Shown one piece after another: positions 8,311-55,603 of a stretch of DNA of 64,000 nt. The stretch lies in the NCBI GenBank assembly GCA_963699165.1, contig OY969413.1:141984-205983 (forward strand). Reading direction: 5' to 3'. The translations under genes were made by a program, and so were the position numbers. The notes beneath the pieces are model-generated. The model had not been told where the DNA came from and made no database searches. It saw only the letters and a program-made list of their open reading frames with translations. Every line of letters starts with the position of its first letter. The stretch's first letter is position 1. The DNA is from Candidatus Kaiserbacteria bacterium (GTDB lineage: Bacteria; Patescibacteriota; Minisyncoccia; Phycocordibacterales; Phycocordibacteraceae).

Positions 8311-8351
8311 GCTAAATAACGAGGCAGTTGCTTACTGTTTCGACAAAACCA

Positions 8352-8924
8352 ATGTCAAATCTACTAGGAGCCCTAATCGGCTTTTTGCTTTTGTCGGGGG
8401 CGATGGCGCAATCGGCGACCCCCCAGGCAATAGCTCCGGTTCAACCGAGTTACCCCGTAACTCTGACGGCCTATAACGCCGTACCGGCGCAGACCAAAAG
8501 CGACCCCTCGACAACCGCTTCCGGCGCATACTCGAATCCCGAGATTGTCGCCGCCCGCTCCCGTGACCTTGCGGATGAACTGCCGTTCGGCACGATTATT
8601 GAAATCGACGCTCCCGCAGATCCGGATTCGGACGGCAAATGCGGTTATGATACCGTCGCGCCAATCATCGGGTATCGAGTCATCGCCGATACGATGAATG
8701 ACCGGTACACCAACCACATCGATGTTTTATTTAATACCAAGGCGAACTACATCATGAACGACGGAAGCGTGAAGAATGCAAGCAATGTGCTTGGCGTGTG
8801 TAGTGGCGTAACGGCCCGCGTTGTCGGATATATCGATATGAAAAATAACCCGCTTCCAAAGACACAGTCGGAACTTGCCGCAATCGTCGAGGGGCGCGCA
8901 TCTGCACCGCTTGCGGATAAATAA
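8352..8924 (+). CDS. Secreted 3D-domain (MltA/RlpA-like) cell-wall protein
   Basis: Signal peptide MSNLLGALIGFLLLSGAMAQS; LTAYNAVPAQTKSDPSTTASGAYSNPEIVAARS..FGTIIEID matches the 3D domain (conserved D residues). Confidence 0.6.
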   Translation: MSNLLGALIGFLLLSGAMAQSATPQAIAPVQPSYPVTLTAYNAVPAQTKSDPSTTASGAYSNPEIVAARSRDLADELPFGTIIEIDAPADPDSDGKCGYDTVAPIIGYRVIADTMNDRYTNHIDVLFNTKANYIMNDGSVKNASNVLGVCSGVTARVVGYIDMKNNPLPKTQSELAAIVEGRASAPLADK

Positions 8925-8994: not shown

Positions 8995-9648
8995 ATGCAG
9001 CGTTTAACGAGAGCGGAGTCCGGTTTGACCGCGGCGGAGTACGAAGTGCTGTCGCGGCTTTCAACGCCGCAAAAAATCCAGGACTTTCTCGATGCCATCC
9101 CGATGAATTGGGAAAAAAAGGGCGACACGCATATGTCGCCGCGTGCCGTTCTTCGAGCGAACAAGGCGCACTGCATCGAAGGTGCAATGCTCGCGGCGGT
9201 GGCGCTCTGGATTAACGGCGAGCCGCCTTTGCTTATGGATTTGTCGGCGCGGCTTGGAAAAGGAGATGTCGATCATGTTATTGCGCTCTACAAGCGCGGC
9301 TGATTTTACGGTGCTATCAGCAAAACCAATCACGCAAGCATTCGATTCCGCGACCCGGTGTACCGCACGCCGCGCGAACTGGCGCTTTCGTATTTTCACG
9401 AATGGTTTATGAACGAGACGGCCGAAAAAACGCTTGAATGCTATTCGAAACCGCTCGATATGCGGCGGCTCGGCTTCGGCTGGATTACCGCCGAAGAAGA
9501 TCTATGGAATGTGGATGATGCGTTGAATTCGCTCACTCATTACAATCTGGTGCCGAAAGGGAATTGGCGTCATGTTCGAAAAGCCGACCCGATGGAACTC
9601 AAAGCCGGCCGCCTCGTTGAGTGGCCGGAGTCCGACCCGCGCACCTAA
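8995..9648 (+). pseudogene. Conserved-looking hypothetical gene interrupted by a single in-frame TGA (9301-9303); two ORF halves in the same frame
   Basis: ORFs 8977..9303 and 9358..9648 are both in frame 1; read-through gives ..VDHVIALYKRG*FYGAISKTNHASIRFRDPVYRTPRELALSYFHEW.. The first ATG (8977) lies inside the upstream terminator, so start taken at MQRL (8995). Confidence 0.5.
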
Positions 9649-9723
9649 CGGTCTGCGAGGGTCTGACCTTCTCAAAGGTCGAATTTGATAAGAGCTCGCC
9701 GAGTATGCTATAAATACTTCATC

Positions 9724-10128
9724 ATGAGTTCGGGAAAATCCACATACCCCGCCCGATTGCGGGTTGGGAGGTCGAGCGCCGGACTCGGTCTGTATGCAAT
9801 GCGGCCGTTTAAAAAAGGCGAACGCATAATCGAATACTTCGGGCGGGAAATATCGAAGAAAGAAGAATACACGAGCCGCAGCAAATATCTCTTCGAGGTC
9901 AGCTCGCGAAAGACGATTGACGGCACGACGCGCAAGAACACGGCGCGATATATCAATCATTCCTGCCGGCCGAATTGCGAGCCGAATATCGTCCGCGGAC
10001 GCATTTTCATCGACGCGATTCGCGGCATCAAAGCCGGGGAAGAATTGACGTACGACTACGGGAAAGATTATTTTGACGAGCACATCAAGCCGCACGGCTG
10101 CCGATGCGCGAAGTGCAGGCCGAAATAG
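9724..10128 (+). CDS. SET-domain protein-lysine methyltransferase-like protein
   Basis: GLGLYAMRPFKKGERIIEYFGREISKKE ... ARYINHSCRPNCEP ... GEELTYDYG ... HGCRCAKCR (NHSC, ELTYDY and post-SET Cys cluster). Promoter-like TTGATA N17 TATAAA upstream. Confidence 0.75.
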   Translation: MSSGKSTYPARLRVGRSSAGLGLYAMRPFKKGERIIEYFGREISKKEEYTSRSKYLFEVSSRKTIDGTTRKNTARYINHSCRPNCEPNIVRGRIFIDAIRGIKAGEELTYDYGKDYFDEHIKPHGCRCAKCRPK

Positions 10129-10130
10129 AA

Positions 10131-10157
10131 AAAGCCCCGCTTTCGCGGGGCTTTTTC
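10131..10157. terminator. Bidirectional terminator between SET gene and cspA
   Basis: AAAAAGCCCCGCtttcGCGGGGCTTTTTCC. Confidence 0.6.
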
Positions 10158-10168
10158 CAACAAGATGA

Positions 10169-10378
10169 TTACACCTTGCTGACGTTGAGAGCGTTGGGGC
10201 CTTTCGGGCTGTCGCCGATTTCAAAGGAAACCTTGTCTCCTTCCTGGAGCTCGTCGAACGAGACGTTCTGGAGTTCGTTGGAATGGAAGAAAAGGTCCTT
10301 TGCACCCGGCTGCGAGCCGTCGACTTTGATGAAGCCGAAACCCTTGTCGTTCTTCTTGATGACGGTACCGTTTTGCAT
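10169..10378 (-). CDS. cspA: Cold-shock protein (CspA family)
   Basis: MQNGTVIKKNDKGFGFIKVDGSQPGAKDLFFHSNEL: RNP1/RNP2 motifs of CSD. Confidence 0.9.
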   Translation of the reverse strand: MQNGTVIKKNDKGFGFIKVDGSQPGAKDLFFHSNELQNVSFDELQEGDKVSFEIGDSPKGPNALNVSKV

Positions 10379-10507
10379 GCTGCAGATAGATATACGTGAC
10401 TAAAATATCAAATCAGTAGCCGAGATAGAAGCTCGATCCCACTTCTCTGGATCAGGCGCTGGTTGATAAATACAGAGTATCAGATATGATATTAATTGTC
10501 AATGAAG

Positions 10508-11587
10508 TGTACGCGTCCAGTACTTTTGGCAGTCCCCGACGGTTAATGTACACACAATATACCGCAAGGGGGACACCATGCCGAGCGACTGGTGCGGGCG
10601 TTTGGTGTTGTACCAGATCAGCCAGTCGACAAGCTTCAGATTGAAGGAATGAATATCGTCCCGCAGCAGGCCCCGATTCAGCATGATGAAGTCCTCGGAG
10701 ACGGTGCGATTGAATCGTTCGACGTGGGCATTCATCTTGGGAGTGCGGGGGCGGGTGTGAAAGTGCGTGAGCCCGAGTTCGGCACAGGCATCCTCGAAGT
10801 GTTTGGCGAACTCGCTCCCGTTGTCGGTCTGCAACTCGTCGATATCGAAGGGGCAAACCTCGATGACTCGGCGAAGGAAGTCGTCCGCGCTTCTCGACGA
10901 GTGGTTCGTATACGCGCCCGCAAAGGCGAACTTCCGCTCCACGTCCACTGCCGTGAGGACGTACCGCTTCACGCCGTCGATGAAGCGGACGACGGTATCG
11001 AGCTCCATGCCGCGCTTGCCGGTGCGGCGAAGCTTGGTACGGCGTTTCTGCGGTGTTTCCGTGTGATTGCCCGTACGTGCGTGGAACGAGAGCCGGCTCT
11101 GCTGCGGGAGCAGACCGCGGTTCTTCAAATCCAGAATGACCCGCCCAACGTATGACTCCGACACGGAGTACCCTTCTTCGCGCAGGAGAACGGCAAGCTT
11201 TGCTTTCCCAAGCCGGGGATGCGCCTGTCGTTCGCGGATGATGAAATCCTCGACCTCGGGCAGAACAGTCCTCCTTCGACGCGCCTTCGGCGCAGTGCTC
11301 TTCGGGTCAAGTGCATCAATGCGGCCCTCGTGGGCTTTGAGTTCCTCCTTCCAGCGATACAAGGTGCGCTCCGAGGTGCCAAAGGCGTCGTATGTGGCCT
11401 CCGTCCCGTGCATGTCCCAGAATCCCAATATCTTCACCCGTCTGTCGACTTCCTTTGGTTTCCGCATATGCCGCAATCGTATCGTCCTTTCCCACATGCT
11501 CAACCAGCCCTTCGTACCCCTGAAATTGCTTCTGATGCGCATATATCCTCGGTTATGAGGACTGCCAAATGTATCTGAACTTATGCA
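10508..11587 (-). mobile_element. IS481-family insertion sequence, multi-copy type, copy 1 (1080 bp; ends TGTACGCG...TTATGCA; TSD TGAAG)
   Basis: Identical to copies at 14328, 28564 and 54500. Imperfect terminal IRs share TTTGGCAGTCC. 5-bp direct repeat TGAAG at 10503-10507 and 11588-11592. Sits about 130 bp upstream of cspA. Confidence 0.9.
10509..11542 (-). CDS. IS481-family transposase (HTH + DDE integrase core)
   Basis: 344 aa; MRIRSNFRG ... LDTVVRFIDGVKRYVLTAVDVERKF ... QTDNGSEF ... HFHTRPRTPKMNAHVERFNRTV ... YNTKRPHQSLG. ORF tails after CQKYWTRT differ between copies because they run into flanking DNA. Confidence 0.9.
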
Positions 11588-11601
11588 TGAAGGCGGGGGT
11601 G

Positions 11602-14318: not shown

Positions 14319-15362
14319 TCAAGTTTTTGTACGCGTCCAGTACTTTTGGCAGTCCCCGACGGTTAATGTACACACAATATACCGCAAGGGGGACACCATG
14401 CCGAGCGACTGGTGCGGGCGTTTGGTGTTGTACCAGATCAGCCAGTCGACAAGCTTCAGATTGAAGGAATGAATATCGTCCCGCAGCAGGCCCCGATTCA
14501 GCATGATGAAGTCCTCGGACACGGTGCGATTGAATCGTTCGACGTGGGCATTCATCTTGGGAGTGCGGGGGCGGGTGTGAAAGTGCGTGAGCCCGAGTTC
14601 GGCACAGGCATCCTCGAAGTGTTTGGCGAACTCGCTCCCGTTGTCGGTCTGCAACTCGTCGATATCGAAGGGGCAAACCTCGATGACTCGGCGAAGGAAG
14701 TCGTCCGCGCTTCTCGACGAGTGGTTCGTATACGCGCCCGCAAAGGCGAACTTCCGCTCCACGTCCACTGCCGTGAGGACGTACCGCTTCACGCCGTCGA
14801 TGAAGCGGACGACGGTATCGAGCTCCATGCCGCGCTTGCCGGTGCGGCGAAGCTTGGTACGGCGTTTCTGCGGTGTTTCCGTGTGATTGCCCGTACGTGC
14901 GTGGAACGAGAGCCGGCTCTGCTGCGGGAGCAGACCGCGGTTCTTCAAATCCAGAATGACCCGCCCAACGTATGACTCCGACACGGAGTACCCTTCTTCG
15001 CGCAGGAGAACGGCAAGCTTTGCTTTCCCAAGCCGGGGATGCGCCTGTCGTTCGCGGATGATGAAATCCTCGACCTCGGGCAGAACAGTCCTCCTTCGAC
15101 GCGCCTTCGGCGCAGTGCTCTTCGGGTCAAGTGCATCAATGCGGCCCTCGTGGGCTTTGAGTTCCTCCTTCCAGCGATACAAGGTGCGCTCCGAGGTGCC
15201 AAAGGCGTCGTATGTGGCCTCCGTCCCGTGCATGTCCCAGAATCCCAATATCTTCACCCGTCTGTCGACTTCCTTTGGTTTCCGCATATGCCGCAATCGT
15301 ATCGTCCTTTCCCACATGCTCAACCAGCCCTTCGTACCCCTGAAATTGCTTCTGATGCGCAT
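14319..15362 (-). CDS. IS481-family transposase (copy 2)
   Basis: Same protein as copy 1; the ORF-track N-terminal extension to 15419 lies outside the element and is not part of it. Confidence 0.85.
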   Translation of the reverse strand: MRIRSNFRGTKGWLSMWERTIRLRHMRKPKEVDRRVKILGFWDMHGTEATYDAFGTSERTLYRWKEELKAHEGRIDALDPKSTAPKARRRRTVLPEVEDFIIRERQAHPRLGKAKLAVLLREEGYSVSESYVGRVILDLKNRGLLPQQSRLSFHARTGNHTETPQKRRTKLRRTGKRGMELDTVVRFIDGVKRYVLTAVDVERKFAFAGAYTNHSSRSADDFLRRVIEVCPFDIDELQTDNGSEFAKHFEDACAELGLTHFHTRPRTPKMNAHVERFNRTVSEDFIMLNRGLLRDDIHSFNLKLVDWLIWYNTKRPHQSLGMVSPLRYIVCTLTVGDCQKYWTRTKT

Positions 15363-15407
15363 ATATCCTCGGTTATGAGGACTGCCAAATGTATCTGAAC
15401 TTATGCA
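14328..15407 (-). mobile_element. IS481-family insertion sequence copy 2 (TSD GTTTT)
   Basis: 1080 bp identical element; GTTTT at 14323-14327 and 15408-15412. Left flank shares 15 nt (CGGCAGTCAAGTTTT) with the flank of the IS fragment at 51752. Confidence 0.9.
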
Positions 15408-28489: not shown

Positions 28490-28554
28490 TTTCTACCCCG
28501 ATGTATCGACGACCAATCGCGTCTGAGCCGACTATACTACAACCGTCGCATTTG

Positions 28555-29598
28555 TCAGCGACATGTACGCGTCCAGTACTTTTGGCAGTCCCCGACGGTT
28601 AATGTACACACAATATACCGCAAGGGGGACACCATGCCGAGCGACTGGTGCGGGCGTTTGGTGTTGTACCAGATCAGCCAGTCGACAAGCTTCAGATTGA
28701 AGGAATGAATATCGTCCCGCAGCAGGCCCCGATTCAGCATGATGAAGTCCTCGGAGACGGTGCGATTGAATCGTTCGACGTGGGCATTCATCTTGGGAGT
28801 GCGGGGGCGGGTGTGAAAGTGCGTGAGCCCGAGTTCGGCACAGGCATCCTCGAAGTGTTTGGCGAACTCGCTCCCGTTGTCGGTCTGCAACTCGTCGATA
28901 TCGAAGGGGCAAACCTCGATGACTCGGCGAAGGAAGTCGTCCGCGCTTCTCGACGAGTGGTTCGTATACGCGCCCGCAAAGGCGAACTTCCGCTCCACGT
29001 CCACTGCCGTGAGGACGTACCGCTTCACGCCGTCGATGAAGCGGACGACGGTATCGAGCTCCATGCCGCGCTTGCCGGTGCGGCGAAGCTTGGTACGGCG
29101 TTTCTGCGGTGTTTCCGTGTGATTGCCCGTACGTGCGTGGAACGAGAGCCGGCTCTGCTGCGGGAGCAGACCGCGGTTCTTCAAATCCAGAATGACCCGC
29201 CCAACGTATGACTCCGACACGGAGTACCCTTCTTCGCGCAGGAGAACGGCAAGCTTTGCTTTCCCAAGCCGGGGATGCGCCTGTCGTTCGCGGATGATGA
29301 AATCCTCGACCTCGGGCAGAACAGTCCTCCTTCGACGCGCCTTCGGCGCAGTGCTCTTCGGGTCAAGTGCATCAATGCGGCCCTCGTGGGCTTTGAGTTC
29401 CTCCTTCCAGCGATACAAGGTGCGCTCCGAGGTGCCAAAGGCGTCGTATGCGGCCTCCGTCCCGTGCATGTCCCAGAATCCCAATATCTTCACCCGTCTG
29501 TCGACTTCCTTTGGTTTCCGCATATGCCGCAATCGTATCGTCCTTTCCCACATGCTCAACCAGCCCTTCGTACCCCTGAAATTGCTTCTGATGTGCAT
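28555..29598 (-). CDS. IS481-family transposase (copy 3)
   Basis: Same protein; one M-to-H substitution near N-terminus (MHIRSNFRG). Confidence 0.85.
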   Translation of the reverse strand: MHIRSNFRGTKGWLSMWERTIRLRHMRKPKEVDRRVKILGFWDMHGTEAAYDAFGTSERTLYRWKEELKAHEGRIDALDPKSTAPKARRRRTVLPEVEDFIIRERQAHPRLGKAKLAVLLREEGYSVSESYVGRVILDLKNRGLLPQQSRLSFHARTGNHTETPQKRRTKLRRTGKRGMELDTVVRFIDGVKRYVLTAVDVERKFAFAGAYTNHSSRSADDFLRRVIEVCPFDIDELQTDNGSEFAKHFEDACAELGLTHFHTRPRTPKMNAHVERFNRTVSEDFIMLNRGLLRDDIHSFNLKLVDWLIWYNTKRPHQSLGMVSPLRYIVCTLTVGDCQKYWTRTCR

Positions 29599-29643
29599 AT
29601 ATCCTCGGTTATGAGGACTGCCAAATGTATCTGAACTTATGCA
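28564..29643 (-). mobile_element. IS481-family insertion sequence copy 3 (TSD CGACA)
   Basis: CGACA at 28559-28563 and 29644-29648; inserted about 50 bp upstream of tsaC start. Confidence 0.9.
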
Positions 29644-51751: not shown

Positions 51752-51895
51752 TGTACGCGTCCAGTACTTTTGGCAGTCCCCGACGGTTAATGTACACACA
51801 ATATACCGCAAGGGGGACACCATGCCGAGCGACTGGTGCGGGCGTTTGGTGTTGTACCAGATCAGCCAGTCGACAAGCTTCAGATTGAAGGAATG
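51752..51895 (-). mobile_element. 144-bp fragment (transposase-stop end) of the multi-copy IS481 element, truncated by the IS3 element
   Basis: Identical to the first 144 bp of the full copies; diverges exactly where the IS3 inverted repeat begins. Confidence 0.85.
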
Positions 51896-53037: not shown

Positions 53038-54387
53038 TTGGGGGTCAGGTCAGATGCAGGAGAGATAACCTATATGATACGCACGGGTGTCATTGAAGAC
53101 CTCAAGCTCGCCGCCTATCATTTTGAAAACACGCCCGAGGGTATTTGGATGCTTCAAATGGCACTCTCACAATCTCAATACGAAAGCGCAAAGAAGGGGC
53201 GCGATGTGAAGCGTGGACTTATGCAGAAAGCAAAAATGGGTGTTTATCCTGCGCCCGCGTCCATCGGCTATATGAATGACAAGCACGCCGAAAAGGGATA
53301 CAAGACCATCCACGCGGACCCCGAACGCTTTGACATCGTGCGGAAGATGTTTGACCTGATGCTCGCAGGTGCGCATACGCCACCGCGTATTTTGGAGATT
53401 GCGACGAAAGAGTGGGAGCTACGGATGCCGAAAGGAAAACCTTTGAGCCGAAGCAATGTCTATCTGCTTTTTACACGCGAGTTCTACTACGGCGAGTTTG
53501 AGTACCCTGTAGGAAGCGGCAACTGGCACAAAGGCGTCCATAAGCCGATGATTACGCGCGAGGAGTTTGACCGCATACAAGTATTGCTCGGCAGGAGAAG
53601 CAACCCACGCCAGAAACGGCACGAGATTATGTATCGCGGTCCGATAAAGTGTGGCGAGTGCGGCTGTATGATTACTGCCGAGGAAAAAACGAAGTATCAG
53701 AAAAACGGCAATAAGCACGATTACACCTACTATCATTGCACCAAGCGTAGGGACCCGAACTGCAAGCAACCCCCGATTGAAGAAGCCGAGCTTGAAAAGC
53801 AGATTGCCAAAGAGGTTGGCTCTATAGAGATACCCGAGGACTTCACAAAATGGGCTCTGGCACGCCTTCGGGAGATGAATACGCAGGAGGTATCTGACCG
53901 AGACCGCATCTACGGCTCGCAGAGGCGCGAATACGAGGGATGTGTGCGTAAGATAGATAACCTCATTGATATGCGTGCCAATAACGAACTCACAGAGGAT
54001 GAGTTCAAGGGCAGAAAGCAAACACTCCTTGCTGAAAAGGAGCGACTTGCCTCACTGCTCAAGGATACTGACAAGCGCGTAGAGAACTGGCTTGAGATTG
54101 CCGAGCGCGGTTTCAACTTTGCAGAGAAAGCGGCGGCTATTTTTGCCGAAGCGAAGGAGAATGACGACATTGAGACGCGCAAAGAGATTTTTGCCTCATT
54201 AGGTTCGGACCTCATCTTGAAAGACAAAATACTAAGCATTGACTGGGATAATCTGCTGTTCCCGATACAAACAATGGCAAAAGAAGTCCGCGCCGTTCAC
54301 GCAGAGTTAGAACCTGTAGAAAACTCAGTAAATACAAAGGATTATGGCGAACTCTACTCTCAAAATCCTATCTTGCTCCGGCGGTAG
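53038..54387 (+). pseudogene. N-terminally truncated large serine recombinase (Recombinase domain + zinc-ribbon + coiled coil; resolvase catalytic domain missing)
   Basis: GVYPAPASIGYMNDKHAEKGYKTIHADPERFDIVRKMFDLMLAGAHTPPRILEIATKEWELRMPKGKPLSRSNVYLLFTREFYYGEFEY is the Recombinase domain (PF07508 type). CGECGCMITAEEKTKYQKNGNKHDYTYYHCTKRR is the zinc ribbon. The ORF begins inside the IS3 right end, so the Ser catalytic domain is absent. The 3' end overlaps the tRNA-Asn 3' end. Confidence 0.65.
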
Positions 54388-54447
54388 GATTCGAACCTAC
54401 AACCAACGCCTTAACAGGGCGCTGCTCTACCATTGAGCTACACCGGA
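54376..54447 (-). tRNA. tRNA-Asn (anticodon GUU)
   Basis: Reverse complement reads TCCGGTG ta GCTC AATGGTA GAGC a GCGCC CTGTTAA GGCGT tggtt GTAGG TTCGAAT CCTAC CGCCGGA g: 7-bp acceptor, D-arm, anticodon loop CUGUUAA, T-arm with TTCGAAT. Confidence 0.8.
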
Positions 54448-54481: not shown

Positions 54482-55534
54482 TCATAGTCCGCAATGGTAT
54501 GTACGCGTCCAGTACTTTTGGCAGTCCCCGACGGTTAATGTACACACAATATACCGCAAGGGGGACACCATGCCGAGCGACTGGTGCGGGCGTTTGGTGT
54601 TGTACCAGATCAGCCAGTCGACAAGCTTCAGATTGAAGGAATGAATATCGTCCCGCAGCAGGCCCCGATTCAGCATGATGAAGTCCTCGGAGACGGTGCG
54701 ATTGAATCGTTCGACGTGGGCATTCATCTTGGGAGTGCGGGGGCGGGTGTGAAAGTGCGTGAGCCCGAGTTCGGCACAGGCATCCTCGAAGTGTTTGGCG
54801 AACTCGCTCCCGTTGTCGGTCTGCAACTCGTCGATATCGAAGGGGCAAACCTCGATGACTCGGCGAAGGAAGTCGTCCGCGCTTCTCGACGAGTGGTTCG
54901 TATACGCGCCCGCAAAGGCGAACTTCCGCTCCACGTCCACTGCCGTGAGGACGTACCGCTTCACGCCGTCGATGAAGCGTACGACGGTATCGAGCTCCAT
55001 GCCGCGCTTGCCGGTGCGGCGAAGCTTGGTACGGCGTTTCTGCGGTGTTTCCGTGTGATTGCCCGTACGTGCGTGGAACGAGAGCCGGCTCTGCTGCGGG
55101 AGCAGACCGCGGTTCTTCAAATCCAGAATGACCCGCCCAACGTATGACTCCGACACGGAGTACCCTTCTTCGCGCAGGAGAACGGCAAGCTTTGCTTTCC
55201 CAAGCCGGGGATGCGCCTGTCGTTCGCGGATGATGAAATCCTCGACCTCGGGCAGAACAGTCCTCCTTCGACGCGCCTTCGGCGCAGTGCTCTTCGGGTC
55301 AAGTGCATCAATGCGGCCCTCGTGGGCTTTGAGTTCCTCCTTCCAGCGATACAAGGTGCGCTCCGAGGTGCCAAAGGCGTCGTATGTGGCCTCCGTCCCG
55401 TGCATGTCCCAGAATCCCAATATCTTCACCCGTCTGTCGACTTCCTTTGGTTTCCGCATATGCCGCAATCGTATCGTCCTTTCCCACATGCTCAACCAGC
55501 CCTTCGTACCCCTGAAATTGCTTCTGATGCGCAT
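54482..55534 (-). CDS. IS481-family transposase (copy 4)
   Basis: Same protein, one D-to-Y substitution (VDEAYDGIEL on opposite-frame shadow corresponds to a single nt change). Confidence 0.85.
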   Translation of the reverse strand: MRIRSNFRGTKGWLSMWERTIRLRHMRKPKEVDRRVKILGFWDMHGTEATYDAFGTSERTLYRWKEELKAHEGRIDALDPKSTAPKARRRRTVLPEVEDFIIRERQAHPRLGKAKLAVLLREEGYSVSESYVGRVILDLKNRGLLPQQSRLSFHARTGNHTETPQKRRTKLRRTGKRGMELDTVVRFIDGVKRYVLTAVDVERKFAFAGAYTNHSSRSADDFLRRVIEVCPFDIDELQTDNGSEFAKHFEDACAELGLTHFHTRPRTPKMNAHVERFNRTVSEDFIMLNRGLLRDDIHSFNLKLVDWLIWYNTKRPHQSLGMVSPLRYIVCTLTVGDCQKYWTRTYHCGL

Positions 55535-55579
55535 ATATCCTCGGTTATGAGGACTGCCAAATGTATCTGAACTTATGCA
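54500..55579 (-). mobile_element. IS481-family insertion sequence copy 4 (TSD TGGTA)
   Basis: TGGTA at 54495-54499 and 55580-55584; inserted 52 bp from the tRNA. Confidence 0.9.
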
Positions 55580-55603
55580 TGGTAGAATATGCGCGGCAGA
55601 CAT

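Follow-up and report, generated by a model that had tools for sequence, protein, structure and literature searches.

The window analysed here, a stretch of 64,000 nucleotides (nt) from contig OY969413.1 of a Candidatus Kaiserbacteria bacterium, carries a gene at 9724..10128 that very probably encodes an active, cytoplasmic and near-minimal protein-lysine N-methyltransferase dependent on S-adenosylmethionine (AdoMet). Sequence comparison and structural modelling indicate that it is made up of a SET domain followed by a Cys-rich post-SET segment, in an organism belonging to the Patescibacteria (Minisyncoccia/Paceibacteria) with a genome of roughly 1 Mb. Bacterial SET enzymes are mostly known as effectors acting on host chromatin, and many free-living or non-pathogenic bacteria carry them as well. 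Here a compact SET + post-SET enzyme is kept under purifying selection in a very small genome, and its gene has been retained despite a neighbor that has probably decayed and the spread of insertion sequences (IS). The coding sequence and the motifs of its product are as follows.

9724..10128, plus strand: coding sequence of the SET + post-SET protein-lysine methyltransferase (open reading frame, PF00856 match, PDB match, dN/dS and AlphaFold2 model).
9781..9789, plus strand: GxG (G20-L21-G22), AdoMet-binding motif I, with G20 and G22 invariant in 141 sequences.
9955..9966, plus strand: NHSC (N78-H79-S80-C81), AdoMet binding and pseudoknot, with C81 a predicted post-SET zinc ligand (conservation and KMT2C alignment).
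10042..10059, plus strand: ELTYDY, with Y110 at the Phe/Tyr-switch position and Y112 the predicted catalytic Tyr (E107, Y110 and Y112 invariant; aligned to EELCYDY of KMT2C).
10099..10116, plus strand: post-SET CxCxxC (C126, C128, C131), conserved and aligned to the post-SET segment of KMT2C.

The open reading frame (ORF) runs from an ATG to a TAG and predicts a product of 134 residues with a mass of 15.4 kDa and a pI of 9.8. When searched with the Pfam SET model, PF00856, the protein scored 84.8 bits (E 6.6e-24) over model positions 1-105 of 105. This is about four times the gathering score of 22.4 bits and passes the threshold check proposed in an earlier note on this DNA, which had described SET signatures in the 134-residue body; NHSCRPNC, ELTYDYG and the C-terminal Cys cluster were indeed all found. 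A phmmer search against all PDB chains returned 130 sequences at E <= 1e-3, and the best 60 of the 130 were all SET-domain enzymes. The top match was the SET domain of KMT2C (E 4.8e-21), whose alignment spans residues 12-132 with NHSC, EEL(T/C)YDY and the post-SET segment all in register. The possibility that NHS and ELTYDY had been misaligned can thus be set aside, as both are also invariant or nearly so in 141 homologues. NCBI lists an identical protein, MFZ1075474.1, under the name [quoted passage not shown]; its gene lies on a contig of 993 kb. That pipeline label is already correct, and the sequence finding in itself is unsurprising.

The gene was compared with four orthologues, and the proportions of nonsynonymous and synonymous differences, pN 0.15-0.19 and pS 0.63-0.81, gave a ratio of substitution rates (dN/dS) of ~0.08-0.13, with dS near saturation. 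The SET ORF is therefore real and under purifying selection. A second ORF of 267 codons at 9502..10305 on the minus strand lies antisense to the SET gene and also overlaps part of csp, the cold-shock-domain gene that converges on it. This antisense ORF is almost certainly spurious, because the GC content is 54% and both the Pfam matches and the conservation lie in the sense frames. A gene caller favoring the longest ORF was misled by it, and the SET gene was lost to spurious antisense ORFs in 16 loci.

Residue conservation was examined in alignments of 36, 20 and 141 SET homologues. The residues invariant among the 141 sequences were G20, G22, L23, E37, Y38, G40, Y55, L56, F57, G67, N72, A74, Y76, N78, N84, E107, Y110, Y112, C126 and C128, while H79, S80, C81 and C131 were conserved in at least 90%. 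NHSCRPNC corresponds to residues 78-85 (nt 9955-9978) and is preceded by R75-Y-I, and ELTYDYG corresponds to residues 107-113 (nt 10042-10062); the motifs common to the SET superfamily, GxG, (R)xxNHS and ELxF/YDY, are thus all present. Further conserved cofactor and catalytic motifs are E37-Y38-x-G40 and Y55-L56-F57. The role of GxG is well established for SET domains, and those of the switch Tyr and the catalytic Tyr are known from mutagenesis of DIM-5, G9a and MLL1. At the level of sequence, the four residues typical of the SET + post-SET subclass (C81, C126, C128 and C131) are all there as well. In the 36-sequence alignment C81 is sometimes replaced by His, and position 131 is occupied by Cys, His or Lys; zinc ligands tolerate the interchange of Cys and His.

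An AlphaFold model built from the 141-sequence alignment had a predicted local distance difference test score (pLDDT) of 86.7 and a predicted template modeling score (pTM) of 0.80. The shallower alignment of 36 sequences (72-80% identity) had given a pLDDT of 49 and was discarded in favor of more diverse sequences; confidence rose because the profile search supplied these. Foldseek comparison of the model with the PDB yielded 382 matches at E <= 1e-3, and the best 50 of the 382 were all SET domains with a probability of 1.00. MLL1 and MLL3 gave the best E-values. Template modeling (TM) scores ranged from 0.65 to 0.83 among the matches listed, the highest, 0.81-0.83, being those of GLP/G9a (root-mean-square deviation 2.2-2.4 Å over about 137 columns). 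Modelling thus shows the protein with a predicted SET + post-SET fold.

By the known enzymology of SET proteins, the AdoMet site would lie with the GxG and NHS motifs on one side and the post-SET Zn(Cys/His)4 knot on the other, for which knot C81, C126, C128 and C131 are the predicted ligands. The substrate lysine would enter through a narrow channel lined by Y55, Y110 and Y112, and Y112 would assist methyl transfer. Because the Phe/Tyr-switch position is occupied by Tyr110, as in MLL1, and not by Phe, the enzyme is predicted to carry out mono- and di-methylation and not tri-methylation. The substrate would most likely be an abundant basic protein of the bacterium itself, for example a nucleoid-associated or a ribosomal or RNA-binding protein. 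Precedents exist in Chlamydia cpnSET, which methylates the bacterium's own Hc1, and in Go1-SET of Methanosarcina mazei, which methylates MC1-alpha (PMC3980110, PMC10117894). Beside this analogy stand the basic character of the SET enzyme itself and of the tails on its Alphaproteobacterial orthologues. With a single domain of 15 kDa and thousands of metagenomic relatives, the protein is a tractable target for finding an endogenous substrate of bacterial lysine methylation.

The closest known enzymes are those of the KMT2/MLL-SET1 group (KMT2C, PDB 5F59; MLL1, 2W5Y), which were the best matches at 36-39% identity and a TM score of about 0.7. In common with these, the window protein has GxG, NHSC, EELxYDY, a Tyr at the Phe/Tyr switch and a Cys-rich post-SET segment. 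It lacks their N-SET region, WIN motif and other flanking regions, however, and WRAD partners are not expected. Its SET-I insert is about 10 residues shorter than that of KMT2C, judging from gaps in the alignment, and its post-SET motif is CxCxxC where KMT2/MLL enzymes have CxCx4C. Since the KMT2C alignment covers only SET and post-SET with nothing N-terminal to them, the architecture of KMT2/SET1 (COMPASS) enzymes is absent from this stand-alone bacterial protein of 134 residues. Chlorella virus vSET, a minimal SET enzyme of 119 residues directed at H3K27, is a catalytic core alone; it is not known to have a Cys-rich post-SET segment and acts in dimeric form. In its small size the window protein is similar, a likeness by description only, and it differs from vSET in its conserved post-SET Cys cluster. 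Chlamydia cpnSET/NUE and Methanosarcina mazei Go1-SET, likewise compared by description only, are stand-alone prokaryotic SET enzymes too; vSET is also mentioned in PMC10117894. The window protein is a member of the SET superfamily and of its SET + post-SET subclass, and it is neither a KMT2/COMPASS enzyme by architecture nor a LegAS4/RomA protein.

Catalogues of bacterial SET proteins go back to 2007, and reviews appeared in 2014 and 2022. The earlier note had called them sporadic in bacteria, which undersells the family: besides the identical protein already annotated, a profile search found at least 7,990 clusters at 90% identity with E <= 1e-10. Most of the relatives belong to Patescibacteria, with a further clade in Hyphomonadaceae. 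A word-indexed search returned more than 3,300 relatives, the best 120 of which were 73-83% identical and 119-195 residues long, mostly 132-146. When 50%-identity representatives were searched exhaustively, 59 clusters reached E <= 1e-30 and 1,766 reached E <= 1e-10. The top match in both the representative and the profile search was P0121, a metagenomic protein of 264 residues in which two SET domains stand in tandem on one polypeptide (two matched stretches, 270-359 bits).

Among species-representative genomes, 478 stretches with SET relatives were found. The best 80 of these, at 54-76% identity, comprised about 28 from Patescibacteria, about 43 from Alphaproteobacteria, two from Acidobacteria and a few others. 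The Patescibacterial labels in this set were Paceibacterota, Nomura-, Vogel-, Yonath- and Moranii-bacteria with some Saccharibacteria, and the Alphaproteobacterial ones were of the Hyphomonadaceae/Terricaulis/Vitreimonas type (loci of metagenome-assembled genomes (MAGs) within L005-L075). The Alphaproteobacterial orthologues, 55-70% identical to the window protein, formed one clade nested within Patescibacterial diversity in a rough neighbor-joining tree, which is indicative only. They carry a long basic C-terminal tail rich in Ala, Lys and Pro, and their genes often stand beside tRNA genes, other neighbors being RpiA- and GlmU-like by eye; these Alphaproteobacterial neighbors gave no functional clue. 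The rough tree and the tails hint at a single transfer between phyla and at an association with nucleic acids. An apparent tandem second SET copy in Alphaproteobacteria was rejected as an artefact, since clusters had been chained together by small GIY-YIG-like ORFs and by spurious ORFs that overlie tRNA genes.

The SET gene appears to have its own signals for the start and the end of transcription, which are listed below.

9685..9690, plus strand: -35-like hexamer TTGATA, read from the sequence, 18 nt upstream of the -10-like element.
9706..9714, plus strand: extended -10-like element TGcTATAAA, ending 9 nt before the ATG.
10128..10157, both strands: bidirectional intrinsic terminator A5-GCCCCGC-TTTC-GCGGGGC-T5, found by folding and common to SET (plus strand) and csp (minus strand).

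No Shine-Dalgarno sequence precedes the SET ATG. A strict TGnTAnnnT whose end lies 6-15 nt ahead of the start codon occurs in 12 of 35 distinct Patescibacterial SET orthologues, as compared with 0.55 expected from the background rate (L003, L022, L024, L029, L030, L031, L057, L066, L071, L076, L077 and L078); none of the 41 Alphaproteobacterial orthologues has an extended -10. A Shine-Dalgarno-like motif at -20 to -5 was found in one of the 35 Patescibacterial and in 13 of the 41 Alphaproteobacterial orthologues. From the position of the -10, the missing Shine-Dalgarno sequence and the enrichment among orthologues, we infer that the gene plausibly has its own promoter of the extended -10 type and that its mRNA is probably leaderless or has a leader of 1-3 nt. 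Judged from the upstream regions of the SET orthologues alone, leaderless expression may be common in these organisms; a literature search on leaderless translation in the Candidate Phyla Radiation (CPR) returned nothing useful.

Transcription would end at the terminator common to SET and csp. The 13-bp hairpin lies directly 3' of the SET stop codon and has a folding free energy of -24 kcal/mol (z -5.5) on the plus strand and -29.5 kcal/mol (z -6.5) on the minus strand, in agreement with the terminator proposed in the earlier note. Of 24 distinct spacers between orthologous SET and csp genes, about 20 keep an A-tract, a GC-rich hairpin and a T-tract, and the stem sequences vary among them (GCCCCGC, GTCCCGC, CACCCCGCC, GTCCGGC, CCGCTCGCC, GGGGCACCCTCG and others). 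Recurrence of the architecture with differing stems is a good comparative argument for a functional structure. A consensus promoter and terminator scanner reported neither of these signals, which were found by reading and folding. The promoter was rejected by the scanner on account of the final A of its -10 hexamer, and the terminator was missed because its A- and T-tracts pair into the stem.

Several considerations weigh against the interpretation of the gene as an independently expressed, active enzyme on a bacterial protein. The -10 of the window, TATAAA, is imperfect, as its final A departs from the strict TGnTAnnnT pattern. In the 78-nt spacer between the upstream gene and SET, folding revealed no terminator-like structure (z -1.15), and read-through or co-transcription from the upstream pseudogene into SET is possible. 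Two proposals of the earlier note are thereby qualified: a promoter of its own is plausible, with TTGATA, the 18-nt spacing and TGcTATAAA in place but an imperfect -10, and a monocistronic transcript agrees with the promoter-like element and the terminator but not with the upstream side, which is open to read-through. The assignment of an endogenous basic, nucleic-acid-binding protein as the substrate, which we consider probable, is made by analogy alone. Finally, the clade appears biochemically unstudied; a literature search for SET domains in Patescibacteria or the CPR found nothing relevant, and no paper that paired "SET domain" with "Patescibacteria".

The genes on either side of SET enter into the alternatives and are listed here with the mobile elements of the window.

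8995..9648, plus strand: CPR-C4-family cysteine protease gene, interrupted by an in-frame TGA at 9301-9303 (orthologue match to PDB).
10169..10378, minus strand: cold-shock-domain gene csp, 69 residues, convergent to SET (PF00313, 64.8 bits).
10499..11542, minus strand: IS481-family transposase (NF033577, 181.6 bits).
14328..15407, 28552..29643 and 54500..55581, strand unspecified: further full IS481-family copies, 99.5-99.9% identity.
51752..51895, strand unspecified: partial IS481-family copy, 99.5-99.9% identity.

The gene upstream of SET is split into two ORFs in one frame, the first from the ATG at 8995 to the TGA (8995..9303) and the second on to 9648. Neither half was matched by Pfam or NCBIfam, nor did a full-length orthologue have any significant Pfam match; the gene was identified solely by searching PDB sequences. 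An intact orthologue matched CPR-C4 (7OB6/7OB7/7PJO) at E 2.9e-54 over residues 11-213. CPR-C4 is a cysteine protease of the Candidate Phyla Radiation with a vasohibin-like fold, and its published gene context was uninformative as to function (PMC9108980). The homology of the window copy to CPR-C4 (7OB6/7PJO) is at the level of the family and runs through the orthologue; the copy is 69-82% identical to the orthologues in L001 and L002, and has TGA in place of the Gly codon (GGN) seen in five orthologues. Two identical public contigs (L081 and L082), one an NCBI MAG and the other a Logan assembly, also carry this TGA, but the three assemblies may share reads, and a sequencing error is possible. 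We tried and rejected reading the TGA as Gly (code 25) or as selenocysteine, and take it as a genuine stop. Because TGA closes the gene of the predicted signal peptidase and table 11 gives open frames for the other neighboring genes, the simplest reading is a single nonsense mutation from GGN to TGA, and not recoding. The window copy is therefore a probable pseudogene, in keeping with the earlier placement of SET between a pseudogene and cspA. The downstream gene does encode a cold-shock domain, and its product scores below the cutoff of every named Csp equivalog in NCBIfam.

One alternative refines the interpretation given above, and would make SET part of a conserved protein-modification module with CPR-C4, Csp or both, in which, for example, methyltransferase and protease might share a substrate, or might modify one another or Csp. 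We examined 165 fetched loci, of which 80 (L086-L165) were retrieved by a metagenome scan via CPR-C4 alone. SET lies within 2.5 kb in 31 of these 80 loci, and in 11 of the 21 having at least 3 kb on both flanks, usually on the same strand and downstream with zero to two unrelated genes between. CPR-C4 and SET are in tandem in the window and L002, and divergent in L007, L018, L055, L159 and L160. A convergent csp within 500 nt downstream of SET was present in 14 of 21 CPR-C4-derived loci with SET and enough room. Among 84 SET-derived loci it was present in 7, two of which are the distant L013 and L076. Where adjacent, csp is always convergent to SET and usually 55-90 nt away. In the distant loci (L007, L018, L055, L159, L160, L013 and L076), CPR-C4 and/or csp are the only genes from about 10 kb to either side in the window that are still near SET; Pth, the signal peptidase, the HisRS-like gene and YceG no longer are, and L160 retains CPR-C4, SET and csp together. 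Because CPR-C4 and/or csp alone have persisted at this distance, the comparison suggests that the linkage is under selection and is more than residual synteny. The CPR-C4 paper makes no mention of a link to SET and csp, and found no informative gene context (PMC9108980).

The three genes do not form an operon, however. The csp gene is convergent, an F420-ligase-like gene on the opposite strand intervenes between CPR-C4 and SET in L083 and L085, joined in L083 by a cupin gene, and most loci are without the association: many CPR-C4 loci with ample flanks have no SET, and most SET loci lack both neighbors. The loci are, moreover, phylogenetically non-independent. In this window SET appears independent of CPR-C4, because SET is intact and under purifying selection while CPR-C4 is probably inactive. 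We regard a module of this kind as rather unlikely, and the recurrent CPR-C4/SET/csp neighborhood as the one lead with some mild novelty, which does supply concrete substrate candidates. The more ambitious version, an ancient and selectively maintained CPR-C4/SET/csp circuit in which methylation and proteolytic trimming would converge on a shared and possibly nucleic-acid-binding or host-facing target, is unlikely. If this were true, CPR-C4 would for the first time have a functional context, and a bacterial SET enzyme of the CPR would for the first time be placed in an endogenous pathway. We consider just as unlikely the broader statement that the three make up a conserved module for protein modification, or else that host proteins are the target of SET.

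A second alternative, that SET is an effector delivered into a bacterial, archaeal or protist host cell where it would methylate nucleoid or histone proteins, has models in Chlamydia NUE, Legionella RomA/LegAS4, Burkholderia BtSET and Bacillus BaSET, all in eukaryotic hosts. Patescibacteria are generally host-dependent, and an archaeal parasite is reported among the Minisyncoccia, the class to which the window belongs. Most of the characterised bacterial SET proteins that the 2022 review lists are secreted nucleomodulins (PMC10117894), and the best sequence and structure matches of the window protein are eukaryotic H3K4 methyltransferases. The resemblance to MLL is, however, what is expected of any SET + post-SET domain. 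The Legionella Dot/Icm effector RomA/LegAS4 (AnkI) shares the SET core, but its equivalog model NF043024 matched residues 16-114 of the window protein only in part, at 29 bits against a cutoff of 550 and over model positions 31-141 of 439. Unlike RomA/LegAS4, the window protein lacks ankyrin repeats, an N-terminal region bearing a nuclear localization signal (NLS) and any other accessory domain; by eye, the catalytic domain takes up essentially all of its 134 residues. NUE is an effector exported by type III secretion, whereas nothing in the window protein suggests secretion, and no hydrophobic N-terminal signal was seen by eye. Relatives with 55-70% identity occur in Hyphomonadaceae/Terricaulis and Acidobacteria MAGs, which represent non-symbiotic lineages. 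PADLOC and the other libraries gave no hint of a conflict system; PADLOC had no match for SET or CPR-C4, and csp matched only its generic CSD_V model. The effector option, which the earlier note had also entertained, is accordingly not favored: we consider it quite improbable, and less likely than the model of an endogenous substrate.

That SET might be a decaying or non-catalytic remnant, as the nonsense mutation in the adjacent CPR-C4 gene and at least four near-identical IS481-family copies in the window (one 130 nt upstream of the csp start) could suggest, is largely refuted and most improbable, since the ORF is full length, all motif residues match the family consensus, dN/dS is about 0.1, and the promoter-like element and terminator are intact.

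The window also shows signs of IS expansion. The IS481-family element downstream of csp occupies about 10496-11589 (~1.08 kb), and the window, out of a genome of roughly 1 Mb, holds four full copies and one partial copy. Another copy abuts the tRNA gene at 54376-54447, which was the sole Rfam match; no RNA family was found near SET. Both short-read contigs carrying SET end at the copy downstream of csp. Directly upstream of CPR-C4 lies an ORF of 198 codons (8328..8924, plus strand) whose product is hydrophobic at its N-terminus and was matched by none of Pfam, NCBIfam and PADLOC; it is conserved in that position in many related loci at 55-66% identity, with matches in 59 of the 165 fetched loci.

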